From Desulfobacteria bacterium (GTDB taxonomy: Bacteria > Desulfobacterota > Desulfobacteria > Desulfobacterales > C00003060), in assembly GCA_040326175.1 (NCBI GenBank), contig JBEQLC010000001.1, forward strand, positions 1 to 25,672: a stretch of 25,672 bases of DNA, in the 5' to 3' direction. The notes beneath the pieces are model-generated. The model was not told the origin of the DNA. It ran no database searches and saw nothing but the letters and a program-made list of their open reading frames with translations. Numbering within the stretch: the first letter of the stretch is position 1; every line of letters begins with the position of its first letter. Below, one piece after another: positions 7,292-23,438 of this stretch. Both the position numbers and the translations under genes were made by a program.

Positions 7292-7777
7292 TTGAAACCA
7301 GCACTTACGGTTATCGGAATAGATCCTGGCCTAGCCGCAACAGGTTATGGGATAGTCCAAGGATCTGGTTCCCGGATTAGAGAATATACCTTCGGCACGA
7401 TTCGAACTTCAAAGGCCGAGACCTTGCCTGACAGGCTGCAACAAATTTTTTCTGAGCTTTGTTCCGTCCTTAATTCCCAGAAACCCGACCTGATGGTCAT
7501 CGAAGACATCTTTTCCGTCAAGCAATTCCCTAAATCGGGTATTACCCTCGGAAAGGTGTGCGGGGTAATACTGCTGGCGTGTTCTCAGTGCCGCATAGCG
7601 GTAATTGAGGTCCCTGTTCGGGAAGTCAAGCGAATACTGACCGGAAACGGCAATGCCACAAAGAGTCAGATGGAGAGGGCGGTCAGGCATCTCTTGAAGA
7701 GAGATACACCCATTACGCCGTCACACGCATCTGACGCCGTAGCCCTCGCCCTGGTGGGCATGTTCAGGCATGCATAG
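7292..7777 (+). CDS. ruvC: Holliday junction resolvase RuvC
   Basis: VIGIDPGLAATGYG, MVIEDIF, GNGNATKSQM and HASDAVALA catalytic motifs; TTG start. Confidence 0.95.
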   Translation: MKPALTVIGIDPGLAATGYGIVQGSGSRIREYTFGTIRTSKAETLPDRLQQIFSELCSVLNSQKPDLMVIEDIFSVKQFPKSGITLGKVCGVILLACSQCRIAVIEVPVREVKRILTGNGNATKSQMERAVRHLLKRDTPITPSHASDAVALALVGMFRHA

Positions 7778-8024
7778 AAGCCATTTCAAAACCCCATCTA
7801 ACGCTCGATGGCTGTGTTGAAAACCTGTTGTTTTGCTGCGCAAAACTTAAATCTAAGCGCCTAATCGCGCCCTTAAGTACTCGCTTCGCTTTGTACTTAA
7901 GGCCATCCCGCCAATGGCGGTCTGGCGGTTTATGCAAAATGCTCACATACTCCCGTGTATGCTGCGCTTTTTCATCGGCTTTCGCCTTGCCCTCGAACGC
8001 GATCTGAGGTTTTGCAATGGCTTC
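7777..8024. mobile_element. 248-bp MITE with 17-bp terminal inverted repeats and TA duplication
   Basis: GAAGCCATTTCAAAACC (7777-7793) matches the reverse complement of GGTTTTGCAATGGCTTC (8008-8024) at 16/17. TA lies at 7775-7776 and 8025-8026. There are several internal hairpins and no transposase. Confidence 0.88.
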
Positions 8025-8128
8025 TAATTACCCTAACGTTGCATAAACAACACGCCTGGGGTATTGAGTATGCGATAATACCCACCAGTTGTAGCGGTTT
8101 TAAGGCCCAGGGATAACAGAGGCAGAAG

Positions 8129-8746
8129 ATGATTGGATATTTGGAAGGCAAATTGCTAAAGAAGGATGAGGATCGAATCTTGCTGCTGAACAATCAAATT
8201 GGTTACGAAATACTTCTGCCTTTTTTTGTCAGAAAGACCTTTAATGCCAAAAAGACTGGAGACGAGGTTGCCCTGTACATCCACTATCACCAGACTGAGC
8301 GACAGCCTAAGCCGACGCTGATCGGTTTCAACTTAGAGGTGGAGAGGGAGTTCTTCCGTCACTTCATTTCGGTCGAAGATATAGGACCCATGAAGGCGGT
8401 TCAGGCCCTCTCAGTGCCGGTTCGCGATATTGCCAGGGCGATCGAATCGAGGGACTCGTCGTATCTTGAGCGATTGAAGGGGATAGGTAATAGGACAGCC
8501 CAGAAGATTCTGGCTACCCTGGAAGGTAAGGTGGCCAAGTTTGCCTTGATCCGTCAGGCCGAAGAGCCTACCGCGGCTCCCATTTCTGAAGATTTTGTTG
8601 ATCAGGTGCAGGAAGTCCTTTCAAAACAGCTTGGCCATAAGGTAAGAGAGACCAGGGAGATGATAGCCGCAGCCTTAAGAAGAAACAGGAACATAGCCAC
8701 AGCAGAGGAGCTGTTTGAAGAAGTCTATCGCGGAGAGACCTCCTGA
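8129..8746 (+). CDS. ruvA: Holliday junction DNA-binding protein RuvA
   Basis: MIGYLEGKL start, QIGYEI, and two HhH motifs ([21 protein letters not shown]). It lies between ruvC and ruvB. The C-terminal domain is divergent. Confidence 0.88.
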
Positions 8747-9798
8747 TGGGACAGGAGAACTCTTCAAAAGGTGCGGCTGATGACATCGCCCCTTCCACAC
8801 TTTCTACGGGGTCAGTAGATATGGAGGAGAAATCAGAGTTTATTAGCCTCAGGCCAAAACGTCTGAAGGAATATGTCGGTCAGGCGAAGGTGGTGGAGAC
8901 CCTCAAGATTGCCATCGAGGCGGCGCTTGGGCGGAAAGAGCCCCTGGATCACGTCCTGTTTCACGCCCCTCCCGGTTTGGGGAAGACGACCCTTGCCCAT
9001 ATTATTGCCGAGGAGATGGGTGTTAATATCACAGTAACCTCCGGGCCTGCCCTTGAAAAGGGGGGCGATCTCCTGGGTATACTCACTCATCTTGAAGAAC
9101 GGGATGTGCTCTTTATCGACGAGATGCATCGTCTTCCCAGGATTGTTGAGGAGTTTCTTTATCCTGCCATGGAGGACTTTGCAGTCGATTTTATCTTTGA
9201 CAAGGGAATTCATGCAAGGAGTCATCGTTATCGCCTGGAACAATTTGTCTTAGTCGGGGCCACGACGCGGGCAGGCTCGCTTTCGCCACCCCTTCGTGAA
9301 CGCTTTGGGATATTCAGAACCCTTGATTTCTATTGTGATGAGGACTTGACTCAAATTGCCAAGCGTTCTGCCGCCCTGTTGGATATCAGCATCGACAACG
9401 ATGGTGCTCAAGAGATTGCCTGCCGTTCACGGGGAACGCCTCGAATCGTGAATAGGCTGTTGAAGCGGGTACGGGATTTTGCCCAGGTGAGGGGAGATGG
9501 GATCATCCACAAGGCCACGGTTCAGGAGGCATTGGAACTCGAAGGAGTGGATGAAAAGGGACTGACATCCTTGGACAGGAAGTTTTTGAAAGCCATCATA
9601 GAGTTTTACAAAGGCGGTCCCGTAGGAATCGAGGCAATTGCAGCAACACTACAAGAAGAGGCTGATACCTTGGTGGATGTTGTGGAGCCGTATTTGTTGA
9701 AGATCGGATTCTTGACTCGCACCTCATCCGGCCGGAAGGTCTCAGAAGAAGCCTGCCGACATTTCGGTTTGCCAGTCCAGCCAGGGCTGTTTAAGTAA
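8746..9798 (+). CDS. ruvB: Holliday junction branch-migration ATPase RuvB
   Basis: [12 protein letters not shown]; [12 protein letters not shown]; TSGPALEK; FIDEMHRL; GATTRAG; [24 protein letters not shown] coupling to ruvA. Confidence 0.97.
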
Positions 9799-9861
9799 CG
9801 GAGTAATGGAGTGTTGGAGTAATGGAGTATTGGGGTACTCCGACATGCTTCATTGCTCCGT
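9798..9861. repeat. 8-bp tandem array (GGAGTAAT-type x4) with an inverted arm forming a hairpin
   Basis: ACGGAGTAAT GGAGTGTT GGAGTAAT GGAGTATT GGGG TACTCCGACATGCTTCATTGCTCCGT. The reverse complement of the right arm, ACGGAGCAATGAAGCATGTCGGAGTA, resembles the left arm. Confidence 0.8.
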
Positions 9862-9909
9862 GGCGTCTGTGAGAGATAAGAATCCCCATTATCAGGGCTG
9901 ACTGTTGCT

Positions 9910-10788
9910 ATGAGAAGAATCCCTGTTATTACTCTGCTTACCGATTTTGGCTTTCAGGATGAGTATGTAGGGGTGATGAAGGGAGTCATCCTCTCCATAA
10001 ACCGAAACGTTCATATGGTTGACATTACCCATAACATTGCCAGACATGACATCAGGCAGGCAGCTATAGCCACAAGCGCGTCCTTTAAGTATTTTCCAAA
10101 AGGTTCCATTCACGTGATCGTGGTAGACCCCGGTGTTGGTGGAAAGAGGAAGATCATTTGTCTGAAAAAGGAAGGCCATTTCTTCGTGGCGCCCGACAAT
10201 GGCGTCCTGACGATGGTCATACAGGACAAGAAAGTCGAGAAGATCTGTGCGATAACAAACTATAAGTATTTTCTGAAGCCGGTGAGTGACACATTTCACG
10301 GCCGTGACATATTGGCCCCGGTCGCAGCCCACCTGTCAAAGGGCTTGGATATGCTACGCTTGGGGCAGGAGGTTGAACTCAAGGACATAAATAGGATTGA
10401 GATCCCTGCACCACTTGTTTCTGCCGGAGATGAACTCGTTGGCACCGTGATATCGATTGATCATTTCGGGAATCTTGTCACAAATATCAGCCAGGCAGTC
10501 TTTGAAGGCTTTAAAGGTGATACGAGATCAAAAGGGGTTGTAGTCAGGCTGGGAAGGTTTAAGATTCGAGGGGTGTCAAAGTCTTATGAGCGAGTAAAGG
10601 CCGGCTCTCCTGTCGCCATCTTCGGAAGCCGCAAGCTTCTTGAGATTTCCTTGAACCAGGGAGATGCTCGTAGCCATTTCAAGGCCAGAGTCGGTCAGGC
10701 CGTAAAGGTGAAGCTTCCCGCCCTGAAGGGCGGGGGTTCGCTTCGCGGGCTTACGCGCCCGGTAAGGAAAATAGACATTTTCATATAG
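9910..10788 (+). CDS. DUF62 / SAM hydroxide adenosyltransferase (SAM hydrolase; fluorinase-chlorinase superfamily)
   Basis: TLLTDFG..DEYVGVMKG, VVDPGVGGKR, FVAPDNG, TFHGRDI, IDHFGNLVTNI. The last 26 residues come from a repeat element. Confidence 0.92.
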   Translation: MRRIPVITLLTDFGFQDEYVGVMKGVILSINRNVHMVDITHNIARHDIRQAAIATSASFKYFPKGSIHVIVVDPGVGGKRKIICLKKEGHFFVAPDNGVLTMVIQDKKVEKICAITNYKYFLKPVSDTFHGRDILAPVAAHLSKGLDMLRLGQEVELKDINRIEIPAPLVSAGDELVGTVISIDHFGNLVTNISQAVFEGFKGDTRSKGVVVRLGRFKIRGVSKSYERVKAGSPVAIFGSRKLLEISLNQGDARSHFKARVGQAVKVKLPALKGGGSLRGLTRPVRKIDIFI

Positions 10789-10827
10789 CTCCCCTTGACC
10801 CCGCCCTTCAGGACGGGGAAGCTTCAC
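10708..10827. mobile_element. 120-bp non-autonomous element with inverted IS200/IS605-right-end-like hairpin termini (copy A)
   Basis: GTGAAGCTTCCCGCCCTGAAGGGCGGGG (10708-10735) matches the reverse complement of 10799-10827 with one gap and one mismatch. Each end carries a CCCGCCC/GGGCGGG-type hairpin and a TTCAC terminus. No target duplication is visible. The family assignment is an inference. Confidence 0.75.
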
Positions 10828-10904
10828 ATATGTTGGACTGCCCTGAAAGCGTATTGAGTTTCCTGTGTAATGAAGTTCCGATCGGGTTTACGCTCACTTT
10901 GCGT

Positions 10905-11414
10905 TTAGATATCAAGATGCATTTCAAACATCTGCTCGGTTAACTGACGCCCCCACTGGTCGACATTGTGCTCTTCACAATGCCGAAATCCTGCACGTTC
11001 ATAAAGAAGACGAGCTGCCTCCAGACCCTTGAAAGTCCATAGATACACTCTTTTGTAACCCGCACGTTTGCAGAATTCGATAGCCTCTCTGATCAGCACA
11101 CCCCCGAGCCCGCGCCCTTGAAAGCTTGGAGCAACAATAAGCCACCGCAAGCGTGCGCCCTGCTGGCGCGTCTGTCGTCCGTCTACTGCCATGGAGCCTG
11201 CGAACCCCCCTGCTACAGTGGCCACCCAGAATCCATCCCGATTCTTCTCAAATTCACTGATGAACTCTGACAATTCTCTTCCAACCTGGGTTTCAAAGGA
11301 GACATCAAGATTCCAGTTTTCATAGTAATATGTTGCATGGAGATCAGTTATCTTCCCGACTACGCCCGGGAAATATCCGGTTAATTTCACGTCACTCAGT
11401 TTCGGATTTCTCAT
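10905..11414 (-). CDS. GNAT-family N-acetyltransferase
   Basis: ARLRWLIVAPSFQGRGLGGVLI (acetyl-CoA motif A) and VYLWTFKGLEAARLLYERAGF. Start moved to ATG 11414, 4 bp after the upstream stop. Confidence 0.9.
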   Translation of the reverse strand: MRNPKLSDVKLTGYFPGVVGKITDLHATYYYENWNLDVSFETQVGRELSEFISEFEKNRDGFWVATVAGGFAGSMAVDGRQTRQQGARLRWLIVAPSFQGRGLGGVLIREAIEFCKRAGYKRVYLWTFKGLEAARLLYERAGFRHCEEHNVDQWGRQLTEQMFEMHLDI

Positions 11415-11418
11415 ACGA

Positions 11419-11868
11419 TCAATTGCCATCAGGTTGTGTGTTGGCAAGACTGGATGTTGGCACTGCCATTAACGTTACCATGGCCTTGGAGACAAGTCTT
11501 TCGTCTCCGCCTGATACACTTAACACCTCGGACTCTGACACGATAATTCTCTTGCCTTTATTGATCACTTTTGAACGGCAGACTATAATCTCTTCCGTGG
11601 CAGGCCTGAAGTAATTGATCTTGAATTCGATGGTCAAAATGCGAAAGTCATCTGTGACAGTTGTAAAGGCTGCATATCCCGCTGTATGATCTGCCATAGT
11701 GGCAATCACGCCTGCATGCACGAACCCATCCTGCTGCCTGTGATCCGGGCGAATCTTAAGGCTGGTATGAAACTTGCCGTATTCTACTACGTCGACTTGA
11801 TAACCGCAGTAGGCGGGAAAGCCCTGAACAAAATCCCTCTTTAGGAACTCAGCCCATTCCTTATTCAT
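11419..11868 (-). CDS. PaaI-family (hotdog-fold) thioesterase
   Basis: HRQQDGFVHAGVIATMADHTAGYAA and LTIEFKINYFRPA; AGGGGG RBS. Confidence 0.92.
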   Translation of the reverse strand: MNKEWAEFLKRDFVQGFPAYCGYQVDVVEYGKFHTSLKIRPDHRQQDGFVHAGVIATMADHTAGYAAFTTVTDDFRILTIEFKINYFRPATEEIIVCRSKVINKGKRIIVSESEVLSVSGGDERLVSKAMVTLMAVPTSSLANTQPDGN

Positions 11869-12206
11869 TTATCCCCCTTATGCCGCCAAGATCCGATTAT
11901 TCTGTATATTCAATGTGATGTGCCCATTCAGCTATTCGGGTCCTACACAGATATAAGGTACAATAAAGATCGTCAAGACAAAATAAGGCCTTGTGTCTTT
12001 ACTATGCCACTAGTTTTCAATGCGTACTTTGCCCGCAATAATCGAGTGTTGCAATCACAGGAGTTTGTGCCATGGTGCAACGCGGGAGAAGGTTGTTGGG
12101 TGATTTGAGAAGAATAGACTGGATGCGAAAGAGCGTGGCAATTGGCCAAACCGGGATGATGCAGGGGGGTCGGAAAGAGAGTAGAATTGAGCAAAGGAGG
12201 ATTACA

Positions 12207-12488
12207 ATGAAGGCATTGAAAAAGATCGTAGCATTATGTTTGGTGATGTGTGTGGTTATGGCACTGGCCCTTCCCACATGGGCTGAGGAAGTAGAAAAGA
12301 TCAATATTAATAAGGCAACTGTGGAGGAACTTGCGCATCTGAAAGGGGTAGGGCACCAATACGCCCAGCGTATTGTCCAGTATCGCGAAGAACACGGTCC
12401 CTTTACATCCGCTGAGGATATGATGAAGGTTCCGGGCATAGGTCCCAAGACTTGTGAGAAAAACAGGGATCTAATTACTGTAGAGTAA
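12207..12488 (+). CDS. comEA: ComEA-family helix-hairpin-helix DNA-binding protein with signal peptide
   Basis: Signal peptide ending TWA; KININKATVEELAHLKGVG...AQRIVQYREEHGPF...KVPGIG. AAAGGAGG RBS at 12193-12200. Confidence 0.9.
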   Translation: MKALKKIVALCLVMCVVMALALPTWAEEVEKININKATVEELAHLKGVGHQYAQRIVQYREEHGPFTSAEDMMKVPGIGPKTCEKNRDLITVE

Positions 12489-12623
12489 TCTCTCGCCCCC
12501 CCCTCCCGGACAAATAGAACGTACAAAAGCAACAGAGAATCTTTCTTGACCGGTTCATAATTAAAGATCCCTGCGATCCCAATGGATCCCAATAAATCGG
12601 GATACATCGCGACAAGTCCGGAA

Positions 12624-12721
12624 GGGGTCAAGGCGAGCTATGCAAAGATGTTCAACTTCGTTGCCGGGCGTGTAAGCCCGTGAAGCGTCCCCCCGCCCTT
12701 CGGGGCGGGGGGACGCTTCAT
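12624..12721 (+). mobile_element. Second, diverged copy (copy B) of the IS605-end-like element, ending in a perfect 18-bp hairpin
   Basis: Colinear with the reverse complement of 10708-10802 (about 80% identity by hand alignment, one 3-nt gap). TGAAGCGTCCCCCCGCCC-TTCG-GGGCGGGGGGACGCTTCA at 12681-12720. Confidence 0.8.
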
Positions 12722-12889
12722 ATTGACAAGGCCGGCCTTAGGGACCGGGTCCGTCTGCCGAACGTTGGTCCGGTTACAGTAGTGAGAGTATACGAGCAAG
12801 AGACACGCACGGTCTTTTTAATAATTACAGGTATAGGTGATAGGGCCTACCATCTTCGCAGGCATTCGATATTATATCCGAGTGCGCTA

Positions 12890-13214
12890 GAGTGGTTCTC
12901 AAAAATATGTTCCGTTTTGAACCATTATGAGCAACTGTCAGGCAGCATGCTCTTGTACTCCAATCATGTGGCTTCGCCTCATAGCTGTCGGCAAGTAGCA
13001 ACCCTGGCTAACCACAGACCTTATTCCACCCACGCTTGATCCATCTGCAAACCCGCTACCCAGGGTATAGGGGCATTGCCGTGTGCCTATCCCGTAGAGT
13101 TCCGTGCATGTTGCCTCCAACGAGCGAAGGCGGGGATTGACCTGGTTCAAAAAGAGATGCCCCTGGCAGCCCAGAAAGACTGCCGTAAACGGAACATATT
13201 TTTGAGAAACGCTC
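12890..13214. mobile_element. 325-bp MITE with 28-bp terminal inverted repeats and TA duplication
   Basis: GAGTGGTTCTCAAAAATATGTTCCGTTT (12890-12917) matches the reverse complement of 13187-13214 at 26/28. TA lies at 12888-12889 and 13215-13216. Internal inverted repeats are nested. Confidence 0.9.
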
Positions 13215-13420
13215 TAACGTGGGCCGTTCGCTTCGCCCGGATGGGGTACCCCAAAAAGCTCATGAGGGCCGTTCCAAGGAGTTATGCAAAGGTGTCTCGC
13301 TGCATGCCAACATCAAGATAGAAAGCCGGGTCTGGGCTGAATCTAATTCGTGGTGTTCTTAAGGCGTGAGCTGCAAATCCCTGTACGCCATCGCGAGACT
13401 CAGGCGAGGCAGGCGGGAAC

Positions 13421-13445
13421 AATCAACAATCTTCAATCTAAAATC
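13421..13445. repeat. 7-bp-period AATC array abutting the fbp stop codon
   Basis: AATCAAC AATCTTC AATCTAA AATC, directly followed by CTA (the fbp TAG on the minus strand). Confidence 0.6.
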
Positions 13446-14462
13446 CTATATCTTCCCCTGCACGTACTCTTCTGCCAATTCCACATCTTTTTTGCTGCCG
13501 ATAAAGAGGGGCACCCTTTGGTGGAGTTCTTCAGGCTCTACCTCAAGGATCGGTTTTTCCCCGTTGCTGGCATAGCCGCCTGCCTCCGTCACCACAAAAG
13601 CCATAGGATTGGCCTCGCACATAAGGCGCAGTTTGCCATGGGGTTTCCTGGGATCTTTCGTATCTGCGGGATACATAAAGATGCCGCCCTGCAAAAGATT
13701 ACGGTGAAAGTCTGAGACCAGAGAGCCGATATATCGGGCTGTATAGGCCGGTTTGTTGTCCGGGGACTTGAAATGGTCGACCAGACGCCTGACGTTTTCA
13801 CTCCAGTAGTTGTAATAGCTTTCATTCACGCTGAAGATTTTCCCCCGCTCCGGAATTCGAATATTTTCGTGGGAGAGCAAGAATTCCCCTACGCCCGGAA
13901 GGAGTGTAAAGCCGTGGACCCCACGGCCGGGGCCGGTAGTGAAAACCATCATGGTGCTTGAGCCGTAAATGAAATAGCCGGCAGCCACCTGCTTGTATCC
14001 CGGTTGTAAGACGTCGCTTAAAATGCAATCCTCATCGGAACTGATTTTCCTGTGTATCGAGAAGATGGTTCCGATGCTTACATTGACATCAAGGTTGGAT
14101 GAGCCATCCAGGGGATCACATATGAGGACGTAATTCCCTTTGGGGTACCTGGCAGGGATTTTAATAAGATCCGCATTTTCCTCAGATGCTATGGCGCAGA
14201 GCTGCCCGACATGCCCCATCCTTTGAATTATTGTCCGGTTGGCAAATTCATCAAGCTTGTGAACCTCTTCTCCCTGGACATTTTGACGACCGACATAGCC
14301 CAGGATATCCGCGATCCCCGCCTTATTCACCTCCCTTGAGATGATCTTTGCAACCACAATCAGCTCTGAAAGGAGTGAAGTGAAAGCACCTGTGGCTTCA
14401 GGGTTTTCGCGTTCCTCTTCGAGAATATGCTCTGTAACCGTCATGCCTATGGATGTTTTCAA
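13446..14462 (-). CDS. fbp: Fructose-1,6-bisphosphatase class I
   Basis: [73 protein letters not shown] start 7 nt after GGGAGG. Confidence 0.96.
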
Positions 14463-14502
14463 GGTCTTTCCTCCCGATAGGTCTTTATTCCGGTCGAAAA
14501 TG

Positions 14503-14532
14503 AGTGTATTAAGTAAAGCACAGCACTGTCAA
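14503..14532 (-). promoter_or_regulatory. sigma70-type promoter for fbp
   Basis: On the minus strand: TTGACA (14532-14527), 18 bp spacer, TACACT (14508-14503). The -35 box overlaps the AAGGAG RBS (14531-14536) of the divergent gene. Confidence 0.6.
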
Positions 14533-14546
14533 GGAGAAACCAGACC

Positions 14547-16241
14547 GTGGAAACCGTACTGACATTGATCAAACCTCGTGTATGGGCTTTCAGGCACCGG
14601 TTCAAGGGGCGGCTGGAGGGTATGGCATGGGTGAGGATTCTTCTTGCTCTGATAAGCTTCCTCTTTTGGGCGGGCATCTTTGCGGTGGTTTATCGAGTGC
14701 TGGTTTACTTCCAGGGAATTGAAGGTTTTGGCGACATTCTGGCCCGAAAGCTGCTGTCCATGGTGCTCCTTACCTTCTTTTCCATACTCATATTCAGTAG
14801 TATCCTTACGGCCCTCTCCACACTCTATCTTTCAAGAGACCTGCCGTTGATCCACGCGGCACCTGTTTCAGTCGAAAAGGTGTTCCTGGCCCGATGGATT
14901 GAGAGTACCTTTGACAGCTCATGGATGCCCTTTCTGTTCGGCCTGCCAGTCTTTTTGGCGTACGCTCTGGTATATGGCGCAGGCGTTAATTTCTATCTGG
15001 CGCTGGTCGGCTCACTCCTTCCATTCTGCGTGCTTGCTTCTGCTGTCGGCACACTGATTGTTTTGTTGCTGGTAGTATCTCTTCCGGCCAACCGGATGAG
15101 AGACATCTTTGTCTTCCTTTCCGTAGTACTGGTCATCCTTCTATATTTCATGTTTCGCTTCATGAGGCCCGAACGGTTAGTAGACCCGACTGCATTGGCG
15201 AGCCTGGCTGGCTATCTCGGGTCTCTTGAGGCCCCTGGTTCTCCATTTCTGCCCACCACGTGGATACTCGAGGCCTTGTGGCCGGTTCTGACACGCACAA
15301 GCGGCATGGCCTTGTTTTATCTGGGACTTTGTGTGACAGGCGCCTTATCTATGGTCTTTATTAACATAAAGCTTGCAGGGCTCTTTTACTTCAAAGGGGT
15401 TTCAAAAGCCCAGGTGGCCCGCCGGGGTGGGCGAAGCAGAAAGAGATCCTTTGGAATTCACGGGAAACGATCCCTGCTGACTTCCGGCAAGGTTGGCGCG
15501 CTCCTTTCGAAGGATATCAAGACATTCTTCCGGGATAACACCCAGTGGTCTCAGCTCTTTCTGTTGGTGGCTCTTATTATCGTATATCTTTACAACTTCA
15601 TGGTGCTGCCCATCGACAAGGCTCCGATCAAGACCTTTTATCTTCAAAACATTCTGTCGTTCTTGAACATGGGCCTGGCCGGTTTTGTGCTTGCCGCCAT
15701 GGCCGTGCGTTTTGTATTCCCGGCGGTGAGTATCGAGGGGCAAGCCTTTTGGATCGTAAGATCGGCACCGGTTCCTCCGAAGGCATTCCTATGGGTGAAG
15801 TTCTGGACGTACCTGGTGCCCCTGCTCATCTTGTCTGAAATACTTATCGTGCTGACAAACAAGTTACTTTCAGTGACCCCCTTTATGATGGGGCTTTCCA
15901 CAATTACCATCTTCTTCATGGTCTTTGGTATTACGGCTATGGGAGTGGGTCTGGGTGCCGCCTATCCCAATTTTCGTCTTGAGAACATGGCCCAGGTGGC
16001 TACCAGTTTTGGAGGCATGCTCTTTATGTTCCTTTGCGTGGGTTTCATTGGATCAGTCATAGTTCTTGAGGCAGGTCCCGTCTATACAATCTTTATGGCC
16101 AGAATTCGTGGGGAGGCCGTACCTATCGTTCACTGGATCTGGATCACCGTTTCCTTCATATTGGTGGCAGTCATTAATGGGGTGGCCGTTTTCTGGCCGA
16201 TGCGGTTGGGGTCGGAGAGCCTCTGTCAGCTGGAGGAATGA
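14547..16241 (+). CDS. Putative ABC-2-type exporter permease (multi-pass membrane protein, two TM clusters)
   Basis: About 12 hydrophobic segments; LYLSRDLPLIHAAPVS and KDIKTFFRD...FPAVSIEGQAFWIVRSAPV motifs typical of the putative ABC exporter permease family. GTG start after AAGGAG. Confidence 0.75.
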   Translation: METVLTLIKPRVWAFRHRFKGRLEGMAWVRILLALISFLFWAGIFAVVYRVLVYFQGIEGFGDILARKLLSMVLLTFFSILIFSSILTALSTLYLSRDLPLIHAAPVSVEKVFLARWIESTFDSSWMPFLFGLPVFLAYALVYGAGVNFYLALVGSLLPFCVLASAVGTLIVLLLVVSLPANRMRDIFVFLSVVLVILLYFMFRFMRPERLVDPTALASLAGYLGSLEAPGSPFLPTTWILEALWPVLTRTSGMALFYLGLCVTGALSMVFINIKLAGLFYFKGVSKAQVARRGGRSRKRSFGIHGKRSLLTSGKVGALLSKDIKTFFRDNTQWSQLFLLVALIIVYLYNFMVLPIDKAPIKTFYLQNILSFLNMGLAGFVLAAMAVRFVFPAVSIEGQAFWIVRSAPVPPKAFLWVKFWTYLVPLLILSEILIVLTNKLLSVTPFMMGLSTITIFFMVFGITAMGVGLGAAYPNFRLENMAQVATSFGGMLFMFLCVGFIGSVIVLEAGPVYTIFMARIRGEAVPIVHWIWITVSFILVAVINGVAVFWPMRLGSESLCQLEE

Positions 16242-16265
16242 GAGGACTGGGGAATGCGGTGTTGC

Positions 16266-16294
16266 TTGACTATGTTCTGTGACATTGGTAGAAA
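16266..16294 (+). promoter_or_regulatory. Possible sigma70 promoter for the lipoprotein-coaBC-udg-nfeD cluster
   Basis: TTGACT, 17 bp spacer, TAGAAA with an upstream TG (extended -10). The -10 box lacks the final T. Confidence 0.4.
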
Positions 16295-16356
16295 GAATTT
16301 GGGTAACAGCATAAGGGCGAAACAAACAACCAATCTAAGGCATAGGAGGGATTGTC

Positions 16357-16836
16357 ATGGCAGATTTTGGAAGGGTTAGGATTCTTGTTGGGATTTCAGC
16401 GCTATTGCTTGTCCTCGTAATCTCTTTGGGCTGCGCTCGGTTGAGCAGTAATACTACAAGCTCAGAATCTGCTCCAACCACGGAGGATGTGGAACCAACA
16501 CCTCTTTACCATGACTTTGAAGATGTTCTAGTCCCTTCGGAGCTCAAGGTAGACGCAAAGAGGACTTTTGTTCATCATGCCCCAGACTTCAGAGCCGGAG
16601 TCCTGGTGTTGACAGGGCGCGTTGAGATAAACTCTCTGGTCAGATTCTTTGAGGACAACATGGCACAGGATAACTGGCGACTCGTGACCACTTTCAGATC
16701 TCCCCGTACGATGATGATTTTCCAAAAGCCGAATCGGAACTGCATAATCAACATCACTGAAAAACAATTCAGGGCCGAAGTGGAGATCTGGGTCGCCCCT
16801 ACCACAAGGACTCAGAGAGAGACTCTACTGAAATAA
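16357..16836 (+). CDS. Hypothetical lipoprotein
   Basis: Hydrophobic signal with lipobox SLG-C, GGAGG RBS and a compact soluble domain. I recognise no function. Confidence 0.8.
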   Translation: MADFGRVRILVGISALLLVLVISLGCARLSSNTTSSESAPTTEDVEPTPLYHDFEDVLVPSELKVDAKRTFVHHAPDFRAGVLVLTGRVEINSLVRFFEDNMAQDNWRLVTTFRSPRTMMIFQKPNRNCIINITEKQFRAEVEIWVAPTTRTQRETLLK

Positions 16837-16907
16837 CACAAAGCGCATAGAGTTTTTGGCTATTCGCTGTTGCTATACTCTATCCGCCAAAGACAGCAAA
16901 GAGGCAA

Positions 16908-18128
16908 ATGTCAGATCCCCTGAAGGATAAGAATATTGTATTAGGCGTGTGCGGTGGGATCGCTGCTTACAAGGCCTTGGACCTTCTCAGGGTCTTTGTC
17001 AGAGCCGGAGCCCGAATCCGGGTGATTATGACCGGGGCGGCCCAGGCGTTTGTTGGCCCGACCACGTTTCAGGCTCTCTCCGGACATTCGGTATGGACCC
17101 AAATGTTTGGGGAGCAAGAAGGCGCACCCTTTCGACATATCGCATGGGCAGAAGAGGCCGATGCTGTTGTCATCGTGCCGGCCACTGCCAATATCATTGG
17201 CAAGATGTCCCACGGGATTGCAGATGATCCTTTGACCACCTTTGTCCTGTCGGTTCGAGCGCCAATCTTGGTCTGTCCGTCCATGAACGTTCACATGTAC
17301 GAAAACCGTCTCGTCCAGGACAACATTGAGAAGCTTGAGCGGACCGGCATCAAGGTGCTCCGTCCCGAAACCGGAGTACTCGCCTGTGGCGACGAGGGGC
17401 CAGGTCGGTTGCCAGATGTCGAGACGATAGCGGAAGAAGTTCGCTCACTGTTGTGTCCCAAGGATTTGGCTGGAGAGAGGGTCCTGGTAACTGCCGGGCC
17501 CACTCAGGAACCGATCGATCCCGTCAGGTTCATCAGCAATCCTTCTTCGGGCAAGATGGGATATGTGCTTGCGCGCGTTGCCCGGAGGCGGGGGGCGGAA
17601 GTCTCGTTGGTTAGCGGGCCTACAGTGCTTGCTGACCCTCAAGGCGTCAGGGTGATCCGGGTCAGGACAGCCGAAGAGATGTATAACGCGGTGATGGAAA
17701 CGGCGGAAGAAGCTACAATCATCGTAATGGCCGCTGCGGTATCAGACTGCCGGCCCGCCAGTCTCTTTGAACACAAGGTCAGGAAGGAGGAGATGGCGCA
17801 GGATCTACGTCTGGAGCAGACGGTTGATATTCTAAAGGTACTGGGGGAGAACAAGAACAGACAGATTCTGGTCGGTTTTGCTGCTGAAACTCGAGATCTA
17901 CAGGAAAGTGCCTGCGCCAAGCTGTCTGCCAAGAACTTGGATCTTATTGCTGCCAATCTAATCGGGCAGGCTGATTCAGGGTTTGGCTCAGACACCAACC
18001 AGGTAAGTCTTTTTTACAAGGACGGTCGCAAAGAGGCTCTGCCGCTTATGGACAAGGGAGCACTTGCAGAAGTACTATTCGACAAAGTCTTGGAGATTAA
18101 GAGAAAAGCGGATGACGGAAGCGATTAA
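16908..18128 (+). CDS. coaBC: Bifunctional phosphopantothenoylcysteine decarboxylase / phosphopantothenate-cysteine ligase
   Basis: GVCGGIAAYK, PATANIIGK, PSMNVHM, LACGDEGPGRL, VTAGPTQEPIDPVRFISNPSSGKMG, VGFAAET. Confidence 0.97.
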   Translation: MSDPLKDKNIVLGVCGGIAAYKALDLLRVFVRAGARIRVIMTGAAQAFVGPTTFQALSGHSVWTQMFGEQEGAPFRHIAWAEEADAVVIVPATANIIGKMSHGIADDPLTTFVLSVRAPILVCPSMNVHMYENRLVQDNIEKLERTGIKVLRPETGVLACGDEGPGRLPDVETIAEEVRSLLCPKDLAGERVLVTAGPTQEPIDPVRFISNPSSGKMGYVLARVARRRGAEVSLVSGPTVLADPQGVRVIRVRTAEEMYNAVMETAEEATIIVMAAAVSDCRPASLFEHKVRKEEMAQDLRLEQTVDILKVLGENKNRQILVGFAAETRDLQESACAKLSAKNLDLIAANLIGQADSGFGSDTNQVSLFYKDGRKEALPLMDKGALAEVLFDKVLEIKRKADDGSD

Positions 18129-18831
18129 AGCCTTCAATGAGAGTTCCACACAGCTCTTGCCTGAGATTCGAGAGGATCTGAAGGCTTATCTCCAATATAT
18201 GAAAGGATTGGGATATCAGGGTGTGGTCTTGTCTGAAGACTCTGTCAGGATCCTGGAACGCTGGAATAAAGGCGGAGTAGCAGAGACTCTGGACACGATT
18301 CAGGTGGATCTTGGCGCCTGCGAGAGGTGCAAACTCCACAAGGGGCGCAAACATATCGTTTTTGGAGTCGGGAATCCAAGGGCAAAGCTGGCTTTTGTGG
18401 GTGAAGGGCCGGGCCACGAAGAAGACATACAGGGCGAGCCGTTTGTAGGCAAGGCGGGTCAACTGCTTACTAAGATACTTCGGGCGATCGGATTGACCCG
18501 GGAGGATGTCTATATTTGCAACATCATAAAGTGCAGGCCTCCGGGGAATCGGAATCCTGAACCGGACGAGATCGCCGCGTGCATTCCTTTTCTCCGAAGA
18601 CAGCTGAGAGCTATAGGACCTGGGCTGATATGTGCCCTGGGCACCTTTGCGGCCCAAACACTTCTGGCGACCAAAACGCCGATATCTCGGTTGCGGGGCA
18701 ACTTCTATACTTATGAAGGTATTCATCTCCTTCCCACATATCACCCAGCTTTTCTTCTCCGAAATCCCGCAAAGAAGGCCGACGTGTGGGAAGATATGCA
18801 GAAGCTTCAGGAGGCATATGAAAAGACTTAG
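18112..18831 (+). CDS. Family 4 (Fe-S cluster) uracil-DNA glycosylase
   Basis: [40 protein letters not shown] and TYHPAFLLR. Start at ATG 18112, overlapping the coaBC end. Confidence 0.94.
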
Positions 18832-20254
18832 AAACCTTTACAAAGAATCCCCTTTTGTCCAATCTCTGCGTCAGACTCAGATTTTGGTCCTCAAAATACT
18901 AAAAGTATTCCTGCGGCCAAAATTTTCATCTTCCTTGACCTTGAACAAAATTGAACACCTTGTAAAGGTTTCTCCTGGACATGCACTTGCTGTATTTGCA
19001 TTGGCAGGGGTGCTGGTCTTTGCCTTTCCCCTGGCAGCCCAGGCTGCCAAAGGAGAGGTCTATGTGGTTGAAGTTTCTGGTACGATCAACCCGGGCTTGG
19101 CAGAGTATGTGATAAGAAACATTGAAAAGGCTGATGGGGAGGAAGCTGCCTGTCTCGTTATGCAGCTTGATACCCCTGGTGGGCTGGGCCTATCCATGCG
19201 TTCAATCGTCATGGCCATGCTGGCCTCGAAGATCCCTGTGGTCGTCTATGTATCGCCGAGCGGGGCACGAGCAGCCTCTGCCGGTGTGATGATCACCCTT
19301 GCGGCTGATATTGCGGCCATGGCTCCCGGCACCAATATTGGTGCGGCCCATCCGGTCAACCTCGGCCAAAAGGAGATGGACAAGACCATGGCCGAGAAGG
19401 TGGTCAACGACATGGTGGCCTACACCAAAAGCATTTCAGAAAAACGGGGTCGCAACAGCGAATGGGCGGAAAAGTCGATTCGGGAAAGTGTTTCCGTCAC
19501 AGAAAAGGAGGCCTTGGAACTCAAGGTTATTGACCTCATTGCTGAGGATTTGGACGATCTCCTCGAGAAGATCGATGGTCGAGAACTCAAGGAAAAGGGA
19601 ATTCTTCACACCAAAGGGGTTAAACGGGTGGTCCTTACTGAAAGCTTCAGGGACAAGATCCTTAAGACCATCAGCGACCCCAACATTGCGTATTTGCTCA
19701 TGATGATCGGTATGGCCGGGCTCTATTTTGAACTATCCCACCCCGGAACGATCTTCCCGGGGGTTATCGGCGCCATCTCTCTGATTCTGGCCTTCTTTGC
19801 ATTTCAAACACTGCCGGTCAACTATGCTGGAATCTTGCTGATCGCGGTTGCCCTCATCCTCTTCATCCTCGAGATGAAGGTGACCAGCTACGGTCTTCTG
19901 AGCCTGGGCGGCATCATCTCCCTCTTTTTGGGGTCCTTGATGCTGTTCCAGGGGCCCGGGCCCGAGATGCGCCTTTCCTGGCGTGTACTGATTTCCACGG
20001 TTGTCATGGTTTCCGGGTTCTTTGTTGTCGTGGCCGGCCTTGTGTTTCGTTCCCAGATATCCAAACCCCGAACGGGAGACAAAGGGTTGATTGGGGAGGT
20101 TGGCGTGGTCAGGGAAAGGCTTGCACCTGGAGGCAAAGTCTTTGTCCATGGGGAGCTTTGGAACGCCGAGGCTCGGGAGCCGATCGAGGCAGGCGCCAAG
20201 GTCCGCGTCACAGGTGTGGATAAGCTGGTTTTGAGAGTCGAGGAAGTTCGGTAG
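18818..20254 (+). CDS. nfeD: Long-form NfeD (ClpP-like serine protease domain + membrane domain + OB-fold)
   Basis: LDTPGG, VYVSPSGARAASAG, AMAPGTNIGAAHPV, ELSHPG, GKVFVHGELWNA. ATG 18818 follows GGAGG. The N-terminus is interrupted in frame by a MITE. Confidence 0.9.
   Translation: MKRLRNLYKESPFVQSLRQTQILVLKILKVFLRPKFSSSLTLNKIEHLVKVSPGHALAVFALAGVLVFAFPLAAQAAKGEVYVVEVSGTINPGLAEYVIRNIEKADGEEAACLVMQLDTPGGLGLSMRSIVMAMLASKIPVVVYVSPSGARAASAGVMITLAADIAAMAPGTNIGAAHPVNLGQKEMDKTMAEKVVNDMVAYTKSISEKRGRNSEWAEKSIRESVSVTEKEALELKVIDLIAEDLDDLLEKIDGRELKEKGILHTKGVKRVVLTESFRDKILKTISDPNIAYLLMMIGMAGLYFELSHPGTIFPGVIGAISLILAFFAFQTLPVNYAGILLIAVALILFILEMKVTSYGLLSLGGIISLFLGSLMLFQGPGPEMRLSWRVLISTVVMVSGFFVVVAGLVFRSQISKPRTGDKGLIGEVGVVRERLAPGGKVFVHGELWNAEAREPIEAGAKVRVTGVDKLVLRVEEVR
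18831..18972. mobile_element. 142-bp MITE inserted at the udg stop codon and inside the nfeD 5' end
   Basis: GAAACCTTTACAA (18831-18843) pairs perfectly with TTGTAAAGGTTTC (18960-18972). Internal hairpin AATACT-AAA-AGTATT (18895-18909). Left flank TA, right flank TC. Confidence 0.85.
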
Positions 20255-20314
20255 TCTATGGTTTTTCCGTTCGCCTTAGGATTGTTGCGGTGAACTCAAG
20301 GGATAAAGGTGTTA

Positions 20315-20401
20315 GAGTAGTTCTCATAAAAAGACTACTTCGGAAGCAATAAGATGCCTTACTGAGCTTGGATGCTGGAACATGGTTCTGGAGAATCACT
20401 A
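20315..20401. mobile_element. Degenerate 87-bp mini-element related to the 12890-13214 MITE
   Basis: TA|GAGTAGTTCTCATAAAA resembles TA|GAGTGGTTCTCAAAAA. The right end GGAACATGGTTCTGGAGAATCACTA|TA resembles GGAACATATTTTTGAGAAACGCTC|TA. Confidence 0.45.
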
Positions 20402-20451
20402 TAAGACACAGAAGATACAGCAGGGACCGTGGGGCGCTTGGGCATTAGAGA

Positions 20452-20480
20452 TTGACAATATGGTAGCGTTATCATATAGT
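20452..20480 (+). promoter_or_regulatory. Near-consensus sigma70 promoter
   Basis: TTGACA (20452-20457), 17 bp spacer, TATAGT (20475-20480). Confidence 0.75.
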
Positions 20481-20601
20481 ATAAGGTCATATCCAACGCA
20501 AAATAGGGAGTCGCTATAATCAAGGCAAGAATGTTTTAGGACCAATGTCAAACATTGCGGCCTGCCACGGAGCTGTACGGGTGACAAGGGAGACCTTGAT
20601 A

Positions 20602-20829
20602 ATGGCCCCTGATCAGCAAAACCTGACGCAAGTTATATGGGGTATTCTTTTGGTCGGAATGGGGGTCCTCCTTTGCGTCACTACACCGCATGCCTTGCGC
20701 GTATCAGCGGACTCCGCTTTTTTGAACTTTGCACGATACTTTATTGCAGTCCTCCTCATAGTCGCCGGTGCCAAGAAATTGTACGGGTTCTATTTTGCCA
20801 AGGACAAGGAACCCCCTTCGGGCGAGTAA
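20602..20829 (+). CDS. Small hypothetical membrane protein (2 TM helices)
   Basis: VIWGILLVGMGVLLCV and FIAVLLIVAGA hydrophobic segments. GGGAG RBS before ATG 20602. Confidence 0.7.
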   Translation: MAPDQQNLTQVIWGILLVGMGVLLCVTTPHALRVSADSAFLNFARYFIAVLLIVAGAKKLYGFYFAKDKEPPSGE

Positions 20830-20881
20830 GTCGGACATAAATTTGGAACCAAAACCTTTTGGCATGGAGATTTGACCTGTC

Positions 20882-23200
20882 ATGGCTGTAGAGATGGCGG
20901 AACAGCAGACAGCTGATAACAGCGTGGAGAGTGGCTCTGCTTCTGAAGAAGCCATGGGCCATCAAGAAAGGCTCTTGGGCATTACGAACCGTGTCCATGC
21001 CGCGAGCAACATCGATGAGATTCTGATTGATCTACAGGATGATATCATCAAATTGTTCGACGCTGAGCGGCTAACAATCTACGTGGTGGACGGAATAAAG
21101 AAGGACCTGGTGTCCCGGGTCAAGTCAGGAGATGAGATCAGCGAGATCCGCGTGCCCATCTCCACCACAAGTGTTGCAGGTTACTCAGCGTATAAGGGAC
21201 AGTTGATCAACATCAACAACGTCTACGATAAGAAAGAATTATCCGCGATCGATGAGAAGTTGAGTTTCGACAAAGCCTGGGACGAAAAAACCGGTTTTCG
21301 CACACGACAGGTCCTGGTGGCGCCTGTAAGCTTTCAAAAGTATCTCATGGGTGCCATCCAGCTTATCAATCGCAAGGATGGGACGGCCTTTAGCGAGAAG
21401 GACGAAGCGGCTGTCCAGGAACTATCCCAGACCCTTGGAATCGCCCTGTTCAATCAGAAGAGGATGGCAAAGGCCCGCCCGGGTAAATTTGATTATCTAA
21501 TAGAGAATGGGCTCGTAACACAAAAGGAGTTGGACAAGGCGATACTGGAGGCCCGGAAGACCAGGCAGGACATTGAAGCACTCCTGATGAAAGCCTATAA
21601 GATTTCCAAGAAAGACATCGGGCAGGCTTTGAGCCACTACTACAGGGTCCCATTTGTTGAGTATAACGAGCGGGTTCCAATTCCGGGTGATCTTCTGGCC
21701 GGTCTGAAGGTACCGTTCATGAAGCAGAACAATTGGGTTCCGATTGGACAGGATCAAGCAGGCCAAAGAGTTATTATTGCGATTGACAATCCATACCATC
21801 TCCAAAAAGTAGATATGATCAAGCCGCTCTTTCCCGGGAAGGACATTATATTCCATGTAGCGCTTGTAGAAGACATCGAAAGTTTTCTCACCCTCTTCTA
21901 CCAGGACGAAAAGGAACTGGGCTCTATTGAAGATATCCTCGGGCAGTTGGAGGCAGAGGAGGATGAGATTGTAGAGGCGGAAAAGGGTGTGACCGAAGAG
22001 GACAGCGCCATCGTCCAAATGGTTAACAAGATGATTTTGGATGCCTATGAGCGGAATGCCTCAGATATTCACGTCGAACCTTATCCTGGGAAGAAACATA
22101 CGGAAGTGCGGTTCAGGGTTGACGGTGCATGCCAGCTTTATCAGACCGTTCCGTACAATTATCGTGCGGCAGTCGTTTCCCGCCTCAAGATTATGGCCAA
22201 TCTGGACATTGCTGAGCGTCGCAAGCCACAGGACGGCAAGATAGATTTCAAAAAGTACGGTGGAAAGGCAATTGAACTCCGAGTTGCCACGGTACCGACA
22301 GCGGGCGGCATGGAAGATGTTGTGCTGCGTCTATTACAGGCAGGTGAGCCTATACCGCTCAGTAAGATGGGATTTTCACAGGTGAATTATGATAACTTCC
22401 TAAGCGTAATTACCACCCCATACGGGCTCATCTTTGTGTGCGGGCCTACCGGGTCTGGAAAGACCACAACTCTGCATTCGGCCCTTGCCTACATCAACAA
22501 ACCTGACCTCAAGATCTGGACGGCTGAAGACCCTGTGGAGATCACTCAAGTGGGCCTCAGGCAAGTTCAGACTCTGCACAAGATAGGTTTTGATTTTGCC
22601 ACTGCCATGCGAGCGTTCTTGAGGGCTGACCCGGACGTCATTATGGTCGGTGAGATGCGTGACAAAGAGACCACGCATATTGGTATCGAGGCCTCACTTA
22701 CCGGCCACTTGGTCTTTTCCACCCTGCATACAAACAGCGCTCCTGAGAGCATTACACGACTCCTGGACATGGGTATGGATCCCTTCAACTTTGCAGATGC
22801 CATACTTTGTATCCTTGCCCAGCGGCTGGTTCGTACGCTTTGCAAAGAGTGTAAGAAGGAGTACAATCCTTCTCAAGAAGAATATGATGAGCTGGTTCGG
22901 GAGTATGGCCCGAAAGCTTTTGAAAAACTGAACATGCCCTATTCAGATGACATAATGCTATGCAAAAGCGTAGGTTGTAATGCATGCAGCAATACCGGGT
23001 ATCGGGGTCGTATGGGTATTCATGAGCTCTTAATGGGGACCGACGAGATGAAGAGGCTGATCCAGGATAAGGCCCAGATGGAATTCATTCGGGAGCAGGC
23101 TGTCGAGGATGGGATGAGGACACTGAAACAGGACGGTATTGAGAAGGTCTTTGCCGGCCACACCGACCTGAAAGAGGTCCGGAAAGTTTGTATAAGATAA
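20882..23200 (+). CDS. GspE/PulE/PilB-family secretion or pilus-assembly ATPase with N-terminal GAF domain
   Basis: GAF domain at about aa 25-195; Walker A GPTGSGKTT; Asp box TAEDPVE; Walker B DPDVIMVGEMRD; His box TGHLVFSTLHTN; zinc CKEC...CNAC. Confidence 0.93.
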   Translation: MAVEMAEQQTADNSVESGSASEEAMGHQERLLGITNRVHAASNIDEILIDLQDDIIKLFDAERLTIYVVDGIKKDLVSRVKSGDEISEIRVPISTTSVAGYSAYKGQLININNVYDKKELSAIDEKLSFDKAWDEKTGFRTRQVLVAPVSFQKYLMGAIQLINRKDGTAFSEKDEAAVQELSQTLGIALFNQKRMAKARPGKFDYLIENGLVTQKELDKAILEARKTRQDIEALLMKAYKISKKDIGQALSHYYRVPFVEYNERVPIPGDLLAGLKVPFMKQNNWVPIGQDQAGQRVIIAIDNPYHLQKVDMIKPLFPGKDIIFHVALVEDIESFLTLFYQDEKELGSIEDILGQLEAEEDEIVEAEKGVTEEDSAIVQMVNKMILDAYERNASDIHVEPYPGKKHTEVRFRVDGACQLYQTVPYNYRAAVVSRLKIMANLDIAERRKPQDGKIDFKKYGGKAIELRVATVPTAGGMEDVVLRLLQAGEPIPLSKMGFSQVNYDNFLSVITTPYGLIFVCGPTGSGKTTTLHSALAYINKPDLKIWTAEDPVEITQVGLRQVQTLHKIGFDFATAMRAFLRADPDVIMVGEMRDKETTHIGIEASLTGHLVFSTLHTNSAPESITRLLDMGMDPFNFADAILCILAQRLVRTLCKECKKEYNPSQEEYDELVREYGPKAFEKLNMPYSDDIMLCKSVGCNACSNTGYRGRMGIHELLMGTDEMKRLIQDKAQMEFIREQAVEDGMRTLKQDGIEKVFAGHTDLKEVRKVCIR

Positions 23201-23356
23201 CATCTATGTTGTGCGAGTTATAAGATTTAGGAGTATTCTAGTAGCTTCCAGTTTTTCCCTACCTAAGGAAAACCCGAAATCTGAATATCGACACGAAGTG
23301 CATTTTCTCAAGCCGTAAGTCACAACTTCGCGCCAAACAATTTTCGAGACTTCAAC

Positions 23357-23438
23357 GACCAAAATCTGAGTCTAACGCAGGCACTTTAGTGAAGCTTTGG
23401 CGCTGATTGGGCAAAAGAGGGCGTTTTGGAAAGGTCTC
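23357..23438 (-). mobile_element. Reversed half copy of the 18831-18972 MITE, overlapping the uvrB RBS and start codon
   Basis: 23357-23380 matches the reverse complement of 18866-18889 at 23/24. After an insert of about 24 bp, 23405-23438 matches the reverse complement of 18831-18864 at 26/34. Confidence 0.85.

Follow-up and report, generated by a model that had tools for sequence, protein, structure and literature searches.

Several described systems of small bacterial transposons bear on the repeats reported here. A frameshifted layout of two open reading frames (ORFs) is usual for IS427-type elements of the IS5 family, and the IS630-related miniature transposable elements with inverted repeats (MITEs) that duplicate TA include RUP of Streptococcus pneumoniae and Nezha of cyanobacteria. 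IS1301, an IS5-family element of Neisseria meningitidis, inserts at AYTAG with duplication of the TA (PMC2193550). ISNme1, an IS5-family insertion sequence (IS) of Neisseria meningitidis, has the ends GAGACCTTTGCAAAA and TTTTGCAAAGGTCTC (Table 2 of PMC4596501), and the same paper lists related ends of ISPg1, BrickBuilt and the ATR MITE. In-frame fusions of MITEs with host genes are also known, both for the palindromic elements of Rickettsia and for other elements (review, PMC10969869). Here, we describe MITEs in a 25,672-nucleotide stretch of Desulfobacterales DNA (hereafter the window), where they adjoin the stop codons of ruvC and udg and appear to contribute to the 5′ ends of nfeD and uvrB.

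The four element ends singled out in a preliminary description of this DNA all lie where it had placed them (GAAGCCATTTCAAAA at 7777, GAGTGGTTCTCAAAA at 12890, GAAACCTTTACAAAG at 18831 and GAGACCTTTCCAAAA, the reverse complement of 23424-23438). They belong to small non-coding MITEs of three families, termed A, B and C, and not to the single TA-targeting family that had been proposed. The window is very probably explained by these three unrelated families, each mobilised in trans, acting together with a survivorship filter. The ends of family A read G...C, so that a copy entering a TAA or TAG stop at its TA would leave TA followed by G, which is TAG, with the protein unchanged. Such silent copies would persist, while copies in genes or regulatory DNA would be lost. 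A preference for TAR in the target would add to this effect and bring about one fifth of family A ends onto stops.

The window is the entire contig C111 of a metagenome-assembled genome (MAG; G000) from uncultured Desulfobacterales of marine sediment, with 1.96 Mb in 368 contigs, 83% complete. Its closed relative G001 (CP070769.1) has 2,383,205 bp, of which 44 kb are N. Element boundaries were taken from an inverted-repeat search of the window, copies were collected by BLAST and iterated nhmmer against the MAG, and genes were called by scoring ORFs on codon bias, with the choice of start codon optimised. Pfam confirmed the identities of RuvC, RuvA, UDG, NfeD and UvrB among the window proteins. 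Iterated nhmmer returned 48 hits for element E1, 47 rows for E2 (many loci being listed on both strands) and 15 rows for E3, and copies were frequently found at the ends of MAG contigs. Nearly all of the same-genus genomes searched contain these repeats, as do several genomes of the same order. The repeat load of G001 is moderate, with ∼11% of intergenic DNA (1.8% of the genome) in repeats that have at least three other copies.

Three co-resident families of miniature elements

Element E1 (7777-8024, forward strand; 248 bp) belongs to family A, has the ends GAAGCCATTTCAAAACC and GAAGCCATTGCAAAACC and lies between TA duplications at 7775-7776 and 8025-8026. It consists of the 143-bp core form, also seen on contigs C66, C20 and C106, and ∼105 bp of additional internal sequence. 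Its first base, G, completes with the left TA the TAG stop of ruvC (7775-7777, forward strand). E2 (12890-13216, forward strand; 327 bp) represents family C and has 28-nt inverted ends (GAGTGGTTCTCAAAAATATGTTCCGTTT) and TA duplications at 12888-12889 and 13217-13218; it is intergenic, with no stop codon at its site. E3, from family B, spans 142 bp (18831-18972, forward strand) and has the ends GAAACCTTTACAAAG and GAAACCTTTACAAGG. It follows the target ACTTA (18826-18830), of which TCCTG (18973-18977) is a decayed copy, and TA stands on its left side only; this TA and the first G of E3 form the udg stop TAG (18829-18831, forward strand). E4 (23357-23438, reverse strand) is a terminal fragment from family B with the end GAGACCTTTCCAAAAC. 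It carries ∼24 bp of additional internal sequence and forms an inverted repeat with E3 (24 nt at 96%), and its left-type end faces uvrB.

E1, E2 and E3 are each shorter than ∼500 bp, lack a transposase gene and have IS-like terminal inverted repeats (TIRs), as the preliminary description had recognised in calling them MITEs. Target duplication, multiple copies and presence or absence between genomes agree with that name. It had also correctly described the three complete elements as following a TA, with two of them splitting the ruvC and udg stops. Family A elements are 104-250 bp long and carry no transposase gene; the 143-bp core form has GAAGCCATTTCAAAACC ends, and a sub-family has GAAGCCATCTCAAAAA ends. 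The ends of family C, 28 nt long, follow either GAGCGGTTCTCAAAAATATGTTCCGTTT or TAGTAATTCTCATAAGTATGTTCCGTTT, and its forms measure ∼308 bp and ∼78 bp; in most copies the two ends differ in the outer 6 nt (TAGTAA vs GAGCGG). Family B occurs in forms of ∼142 and ∼202 bp with GAGACCTTTGCA(A/T)AAC ends, which match the GAGACC(T/A)TTGCA start of ISNme1/ISPg1-type elements.

Targets also distinguish the families. In the MAG, ends with a TA flank number 57 among the motif matches of family A, 26/32 in family C and 2/30 in family B. Across the MAG and G001, TA stands on both sides of 23/37 family A pairs, 10/14 family C pairs and 0/19 family B pairs. The flanks of family A, with A in 54% at position -2 and C or T in 87% at position -1, describe the target A-Y-TA-R-T with TA duplicated, a profile that the IS1301 target AYTAG matches (PMC2193550). 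The left and right flanks of family B agree best at a length of 5 bp (2.32 matches, where shuffled partners give 1.37 +/- 0.24; MAG and G001), and perfect duplications were found in one copy on contig C222 (TGATT) and in another (GGCGTC). TA was considered as the family B duplication and was ruled out by the 2/30 TA-flanked ends, the 0/19 pairs with TA on both sides and the 5-bp peak. Since the family B duplication is ∼5 bp, the TA before E3 is simply the tail of a 5-bp target.

A family B end of the GCATAAC sub-type (GACACCTTTGCATAAC) lies on the reverse strand at 13281-13296, 65 bp past E2. Next to E2, upstream of the fructose-1,6-bisphosphatase gene, there is thus part of a second MITE.

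Family A ends at stop codons

Enrichment at stop codons, as had been proposed for the elements as one family, holds for family A in two genomes and does not extend to families B and C. An end of family A was scored as stop-abutting when its terminal G and the preceding TA formed the stop of a called gene. In the MAG this was so for 12 of 57 TA-flanked ends and for 5 of 19 complete elements. Under a uniform null, stop codons are 6.0% of the MAG's TA sites that are intergenic or in a stop codon; when sites are weighted by four flanking positions on each side, the expectation becomes 9.0% per insertion, or ∼4.5% per end. Replication in G001 gave 8 of 47 ends at stops, as against 5.3% (uniform) or 8.4% (weighted). 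For both genomes together (20/104 ends), P = 4e-8 at the half-site, per-end rate and P = 9e-4 at the full per-site rate, which is conservative. Family C, with 1/26 ends at a stop, and family B, with none, show no enrichment.

The interrupted codons can be traced in the relative. Orthologous flanks were alignable between the MAG and G001 for 12 of the 20 stop-abutting events, and 11 of these gave clean empty sites, in which the gene stops at the same codon (TAG in five, TAA in three and TGA in three); the twelfth may contain a decayed copy. The events are therefore lineage-specific insertions into real stops, not truncations. The preliminary description had called for a comparison with empty sites in related genomes, and family A has such orthologous sites. 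In all five complete stop-abutting elements, the base after the far TA restores TAA or TAG. The earlier argument that a G at both ends yields TAG in either orientation is right for family A, with its G...C ends, and fails for family C, in which one type of end starts with T.

At ruvC, the protein terminates at the same codon in 10/10 relatives examined. The ruvC-ruvA junction is compact (4-20 bp) in G009, G002, G006 and G016, and different insertions occupy it in G001/G005, G003, G013 and G018. In the E1 of a near-identical strain (L237; JAQYVR010000239.1), A stands in place of the terminal G, which makes the ruvC stop TAA, and CA in place of the right TA; the duplication thus decays while the stop persists. 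An exact empty site of E1 was not found, as L237 is filled and the more distant relatives are either compact or carry different insertions. Between E1 and the conserved ruvA ribosome-binding region lies a second, unclassified repeat of ∼84 bp (8027-8110), which is missing from the four compact junctions; its positions 8030-8106 match G001:293434-293510 at 81%. As a separate observation, the junction (7775-8128 in the window) is an insertion hot spot in the genus, with at least four unrelated inserts of 85-230 bp, one of which, in G018, is flanked by an 8-bp duplication of AATCGTAG.

It is possible, if somewhat unlikely, that the stop association of family A is due wholly to the target A-Y-TA-R-T: TAA and TAG are themselves TAR, and no selective niche would then be needed. 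The flank profile, above all the pyrimidine at -1 (87%) and the A at -2 (54%), does lift the expected stop share from 6.0% to 9.0%, and TAG is commoner than TAA among the orthologous empty sites. Even after flank weighting, however, an excess of ∼2.5- to 5-fold persists in two genomes (12/57 and 8/47 vs ∼4.5% per end), and family C, which also requires TA, has only its single end of 26 at a stop. The enrichment is best explained by target preference combined with the survival of silent insertions, and selection is probably a cause of it.

Predicted stops are also rich in TAG (566/1766 in the MAG and 677/2154 in G001, ∼31-32%). Only ∼1-2% of TAG stops adjoin family A ends, so MITEs do not account for the high TAG share.

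Family B ends in nfeD and uvrB

The proposal that some copies have become parts of host genes fits two cases, the N-terminus of nfeD and the start of uvrB, and both belong to family B, which does not target TA. A broad interpretation, which we find rather doubtful, is that in this genus a few compact junctions (ruvC/ruvA, udg/nfeD and the 5′ end of uvrB) are repeatedly and independently colonised, with the MITE family differing between species, and that some ends serve as portable initiation cassettes, with a Shine-Dalgarno (SD) sequence and TTG or ATG facing outwards, or as tolerated N-terminal extensions. If this were true, core genes would regularly gain new starts and signal-peptide extensions through the turnover of MITEs. 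We infer instead that the nfeD and uvrB cases are accidents, tolerated through the same filter as the family A stops.

Relatives that lack the insertion show a 14-nt overlap of udg with nfeD (ATGAAAAGGCTTAG). The empty site of E3, GGCTTA|GAAGTGC, is found in G018, G002 and G037, and diverged equivalents of the empty junction in G016 and G008, while the insertion is common to the MAG, G001, G005 and G013 at the same point. Filled and empty sites differ by 147 bp, that is 142 bp plus a 5-bp duplication, and the first G of E3 takes the place of the G in the native udg TAG. In the frame of nfeD, the added 147 bp amount to 49 codons, with no stops or frameshifts in all four species. An nfeD ATG lies at 18818, with AGGAGG upstream. 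In G003 and G006 the site holds a 36-nt in-frame remnant, and a different element, likewise open in the nfeD frame, takes this spot in G017 (L015; 138 bp) and G009 (L021; 144 bp). The four length changes are all multiples of three, for which the chance is ∼1 in 81. This pattern would fit translation of nfeD from the upstream ATG through E3. E3 would have struck the 14-nt overlap, rebuilt the udg TAG and been kept only because it was free of stops and in frame with nfeD. The family B consensus is itself already stop-free in the nfeD frame.

A further arrangement of the udg/nfeD junction is seen in G007 (L019), where a 330-bp insert with GTGCCTAAAGT-type arrays, like those at 1-227 of the window, is followed by a new nfeD ATG.

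The start of uvrB lies directly before a conserved (S/T)-x-F-K-L, and is ATG in G001 and G009 and TTG in G013. In the window and in G005, a family B end adjoins this very point. Both read TTG GAA AGG TCT CAG and then TCT C/GCC TTT AAA; the first five codons are identical in the two, and the region overall is only 82% identical. In the window, the TTG (23426-23428, forward strand) is the only in-frame start of uvrB and lies 13 nt inside the E4 end, with an SD-like GAGG (23417-23420, forward strand), also within the end, 5 nt upstream. The 668-aa UvrB is otherwise intact. Comparison of these genomes supports the view that the family B end supplies the start codon and SD sequence of uvrB in the MAG and in G005. 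E4 would have replaced the native start region and been tolerated because its end happens to hold GAGG and an in-frame TTG.

Could uvrB start downstream, at a rare codon (CTG or ATT at codons 10-11), or be unexpressed, rather than start at the TTG of the element? TTG is a weaker start than the ATG of G001 and G009. Yet an in-frame stop bars upstream starts, no other ATG, GTG or TTG precedes FKL, and the spacing of GAGG, the conservation of the start stretch in G005 and the intact protein all make this improbable. In a genome-wide scan for long ORFs whose sole start lies inside an element end, uvrB was the only convincing case. The other hits in that scan were rejected, having alternative starts within ∼20 codons or being chance motif matches.

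Two further repeats occur near this site. Between E4 and the stop of a PilB/GspE-like ATPase gene, positions 23201-23356 hold another repeat family, with nhmmer hits on contigs C119, C55, C345, C210 and C300. In G001 (L026), a palindromic array of GAAAGGTGAAAGCTCAAAGG-type units takes the intergenic position of E4 upstream of uvrB.

Parent insertion sequences

An autonomous transposase with matching ends, for which the preliminary description had proposed a search, was not found in the MAG but in relatives. Profile searches of the MAG gave no match to PF13586, PF01609, PF13358, NF033580 or NF033581. In the genus, none of 20 PF01609 loci has family A, B or C ends, and neither does the sole PF13586 locus (L033). 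In other genera of the same order, two 942-bp elements with TA on both sides (L073:1048-1989 in G181 and L074:735-1676 in G021) have exactly the ends GAAGCCATTTCAAAACC, with 17/17 identity to the family A/E1 ends. Each has two overlapping ORFs that match NF033580 (116 and 139 bits in L073; cut-off 110), and further NF033580 elements bear the GAAGCCATCTCAAAAA sub-family ends. For family C, the parent was found within the genus, as a 1115-bp element of G006 with TA on both sides (L056:1408-2522) and a second copy in G042. It encodes a 351-aa transposase with DDE_3 (125.7 bits), HTH_33, HTH_32 and HTH_29. Its ends (TAGCGGTTGTCACAAT, without the CAAA core) are identical to those of family C at 22/28 positions, and both have GCGGCA just inside the end. 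The parent type of family B is represented by NF033581 elements of 1.3-1.45 kb with GAGACCTTTGCA ends (L220 and L222, in G028 and G134, other genera of the order).

On the evidence of ends and encoded proteins, the putative parents are thus an IS427-type IS5 element for family A, an ISNme1/ISPg1-type IS5 element for family B and an IS630 element for family C. Each family would be moved in trans by a transposase encoded elsewhere. The preliminary assignment to IS5 with TA duplication therefore stands in full for family A, in its IS5 part only for family B, and in its TA part only for E2, which derives from IS630. The end that it gave for IS1106, GAGACCTTTGCAAAA, is indeed a published IS5-family end, listed for ISNme1 (PMC4596501).

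That a single type of transposase mobilises all four elements as members of one superfamily, with their differences due to sub-family drift, is very improbable. All four ends do have GA at positions 1-2 and CAAA at 11-14, and the ends of families A and B match at 12/16 positions and both have IS5-family parents. However, the IS630-type DDE_3 parent of family C has ends without CAAA, and families A and B differ in parent (NF033580 vs NF033581) and in duplication (TA vs ∼5 bp). Least credible of all is that the repeats are not transposons but serve the host in regulation, for instance as terminators or as hairpins that affect mRNA stability, and are retained for that function: they are hairpin-rich and lie at gene 3′ ends and operon junctions, but their ends are those of transposase-bearing IS, they have target duplications, sites at many loci are filled in one species and empty in a related one, copies diverge freely, and a consensus scan of E1 found no terminator-like site.

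Several points weigh against the explanation by three trans-mobilised families and a survivorship filter. The complete-element test in one genome gives a P of only 0.02 under the flank-weighted null. That null counts all intergenic TA sites as equally tolerated, and target preference and selection are not cleanly separable. Gene calls came from a simple ORF scorer and not from a validated gene finder, and wrong stops would add noise. Family B duplications have decayed, and their lengths differ among copies (4-7 bp); of the parent-type elements, L222 has a duplication of 6 bp and L220 none. Because no autonomous parent was found in the MAG (83% complete) or in G001 (44 kb of N), mobilisation is deduced from the identity of ends with IS of other genomes. 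Read-through of E3 into nfeD and use of the uvrB TTG are putative. Finally, pN/pS of the E3 peptide is 0.70 in frame against 0.50 and 0.69 in the other frames, which indicates no peptide constraint; as this ratio resembles those of the off-frames and the family B consensus is stop-free to begin with, there is no sign of an acquired function for the peptide.

Comparison with known systems

The rebuilding of stop codons by a transposon end is in itself already known and ordinary behaviour. What the present case contributes are the details of a test that covered two genomes and used a flank-weighted null and 11 orthologous empty sites, and the finding that the behaviour holds in one of three co-resident families. 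It illustrates, with statistical tests, the persistence of small transposons in densely packed bacterial genomes, at sites where an end may rebuild the stop, frame or start that it interrupts. It also carries a warning for annotation. In MAGs of uncultured Desulfobacterales, contigs often break in these repeats; TAG stops, starts and N-terminal extensions beside them may be element-derived, and look-alike ends may stem from unrelated transposase families.

Family A resembles IS1301 and IS427-type IS5 elements (NF033580) in its ends and in its AYTAG-like target with TA duplication (PMC2193550). It differs in being 104-250 bp long without a transposase, with nothing in common beyond the first 17-18 nt, and no copy of its parent was found in this genus. 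Family C is like IS630 elements in its TA duplication and in its 1115-bp parent with HTH and DDE_3 domains; it differs from IS630 MITEs in the unequal outer 6 nt of its ends, and it has no association with stop codons.

Family B has a consensus end, GAGACCTTTGCAAAA, that agrees at all 15 nt with the one published for ISNme1, and its short, variable duplications recall those of BrickBuilt/MITEPgRS in Porphyromonas gingivalis (PMC4596501). From ISNme1/ISPg1, ATR of Neisseria and BrickBuilt, family B differs in host phylum (Desulfobacterota) and in internal sequence. E3 resembles the Rickettsia palindromic elements as a MITE in frame within a host protein (49 codons of NfeD) that has been kept across species. 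It differs from them in being a single, N-terminal case, ahead of the signal-peptide core and without constraint on the peptide.

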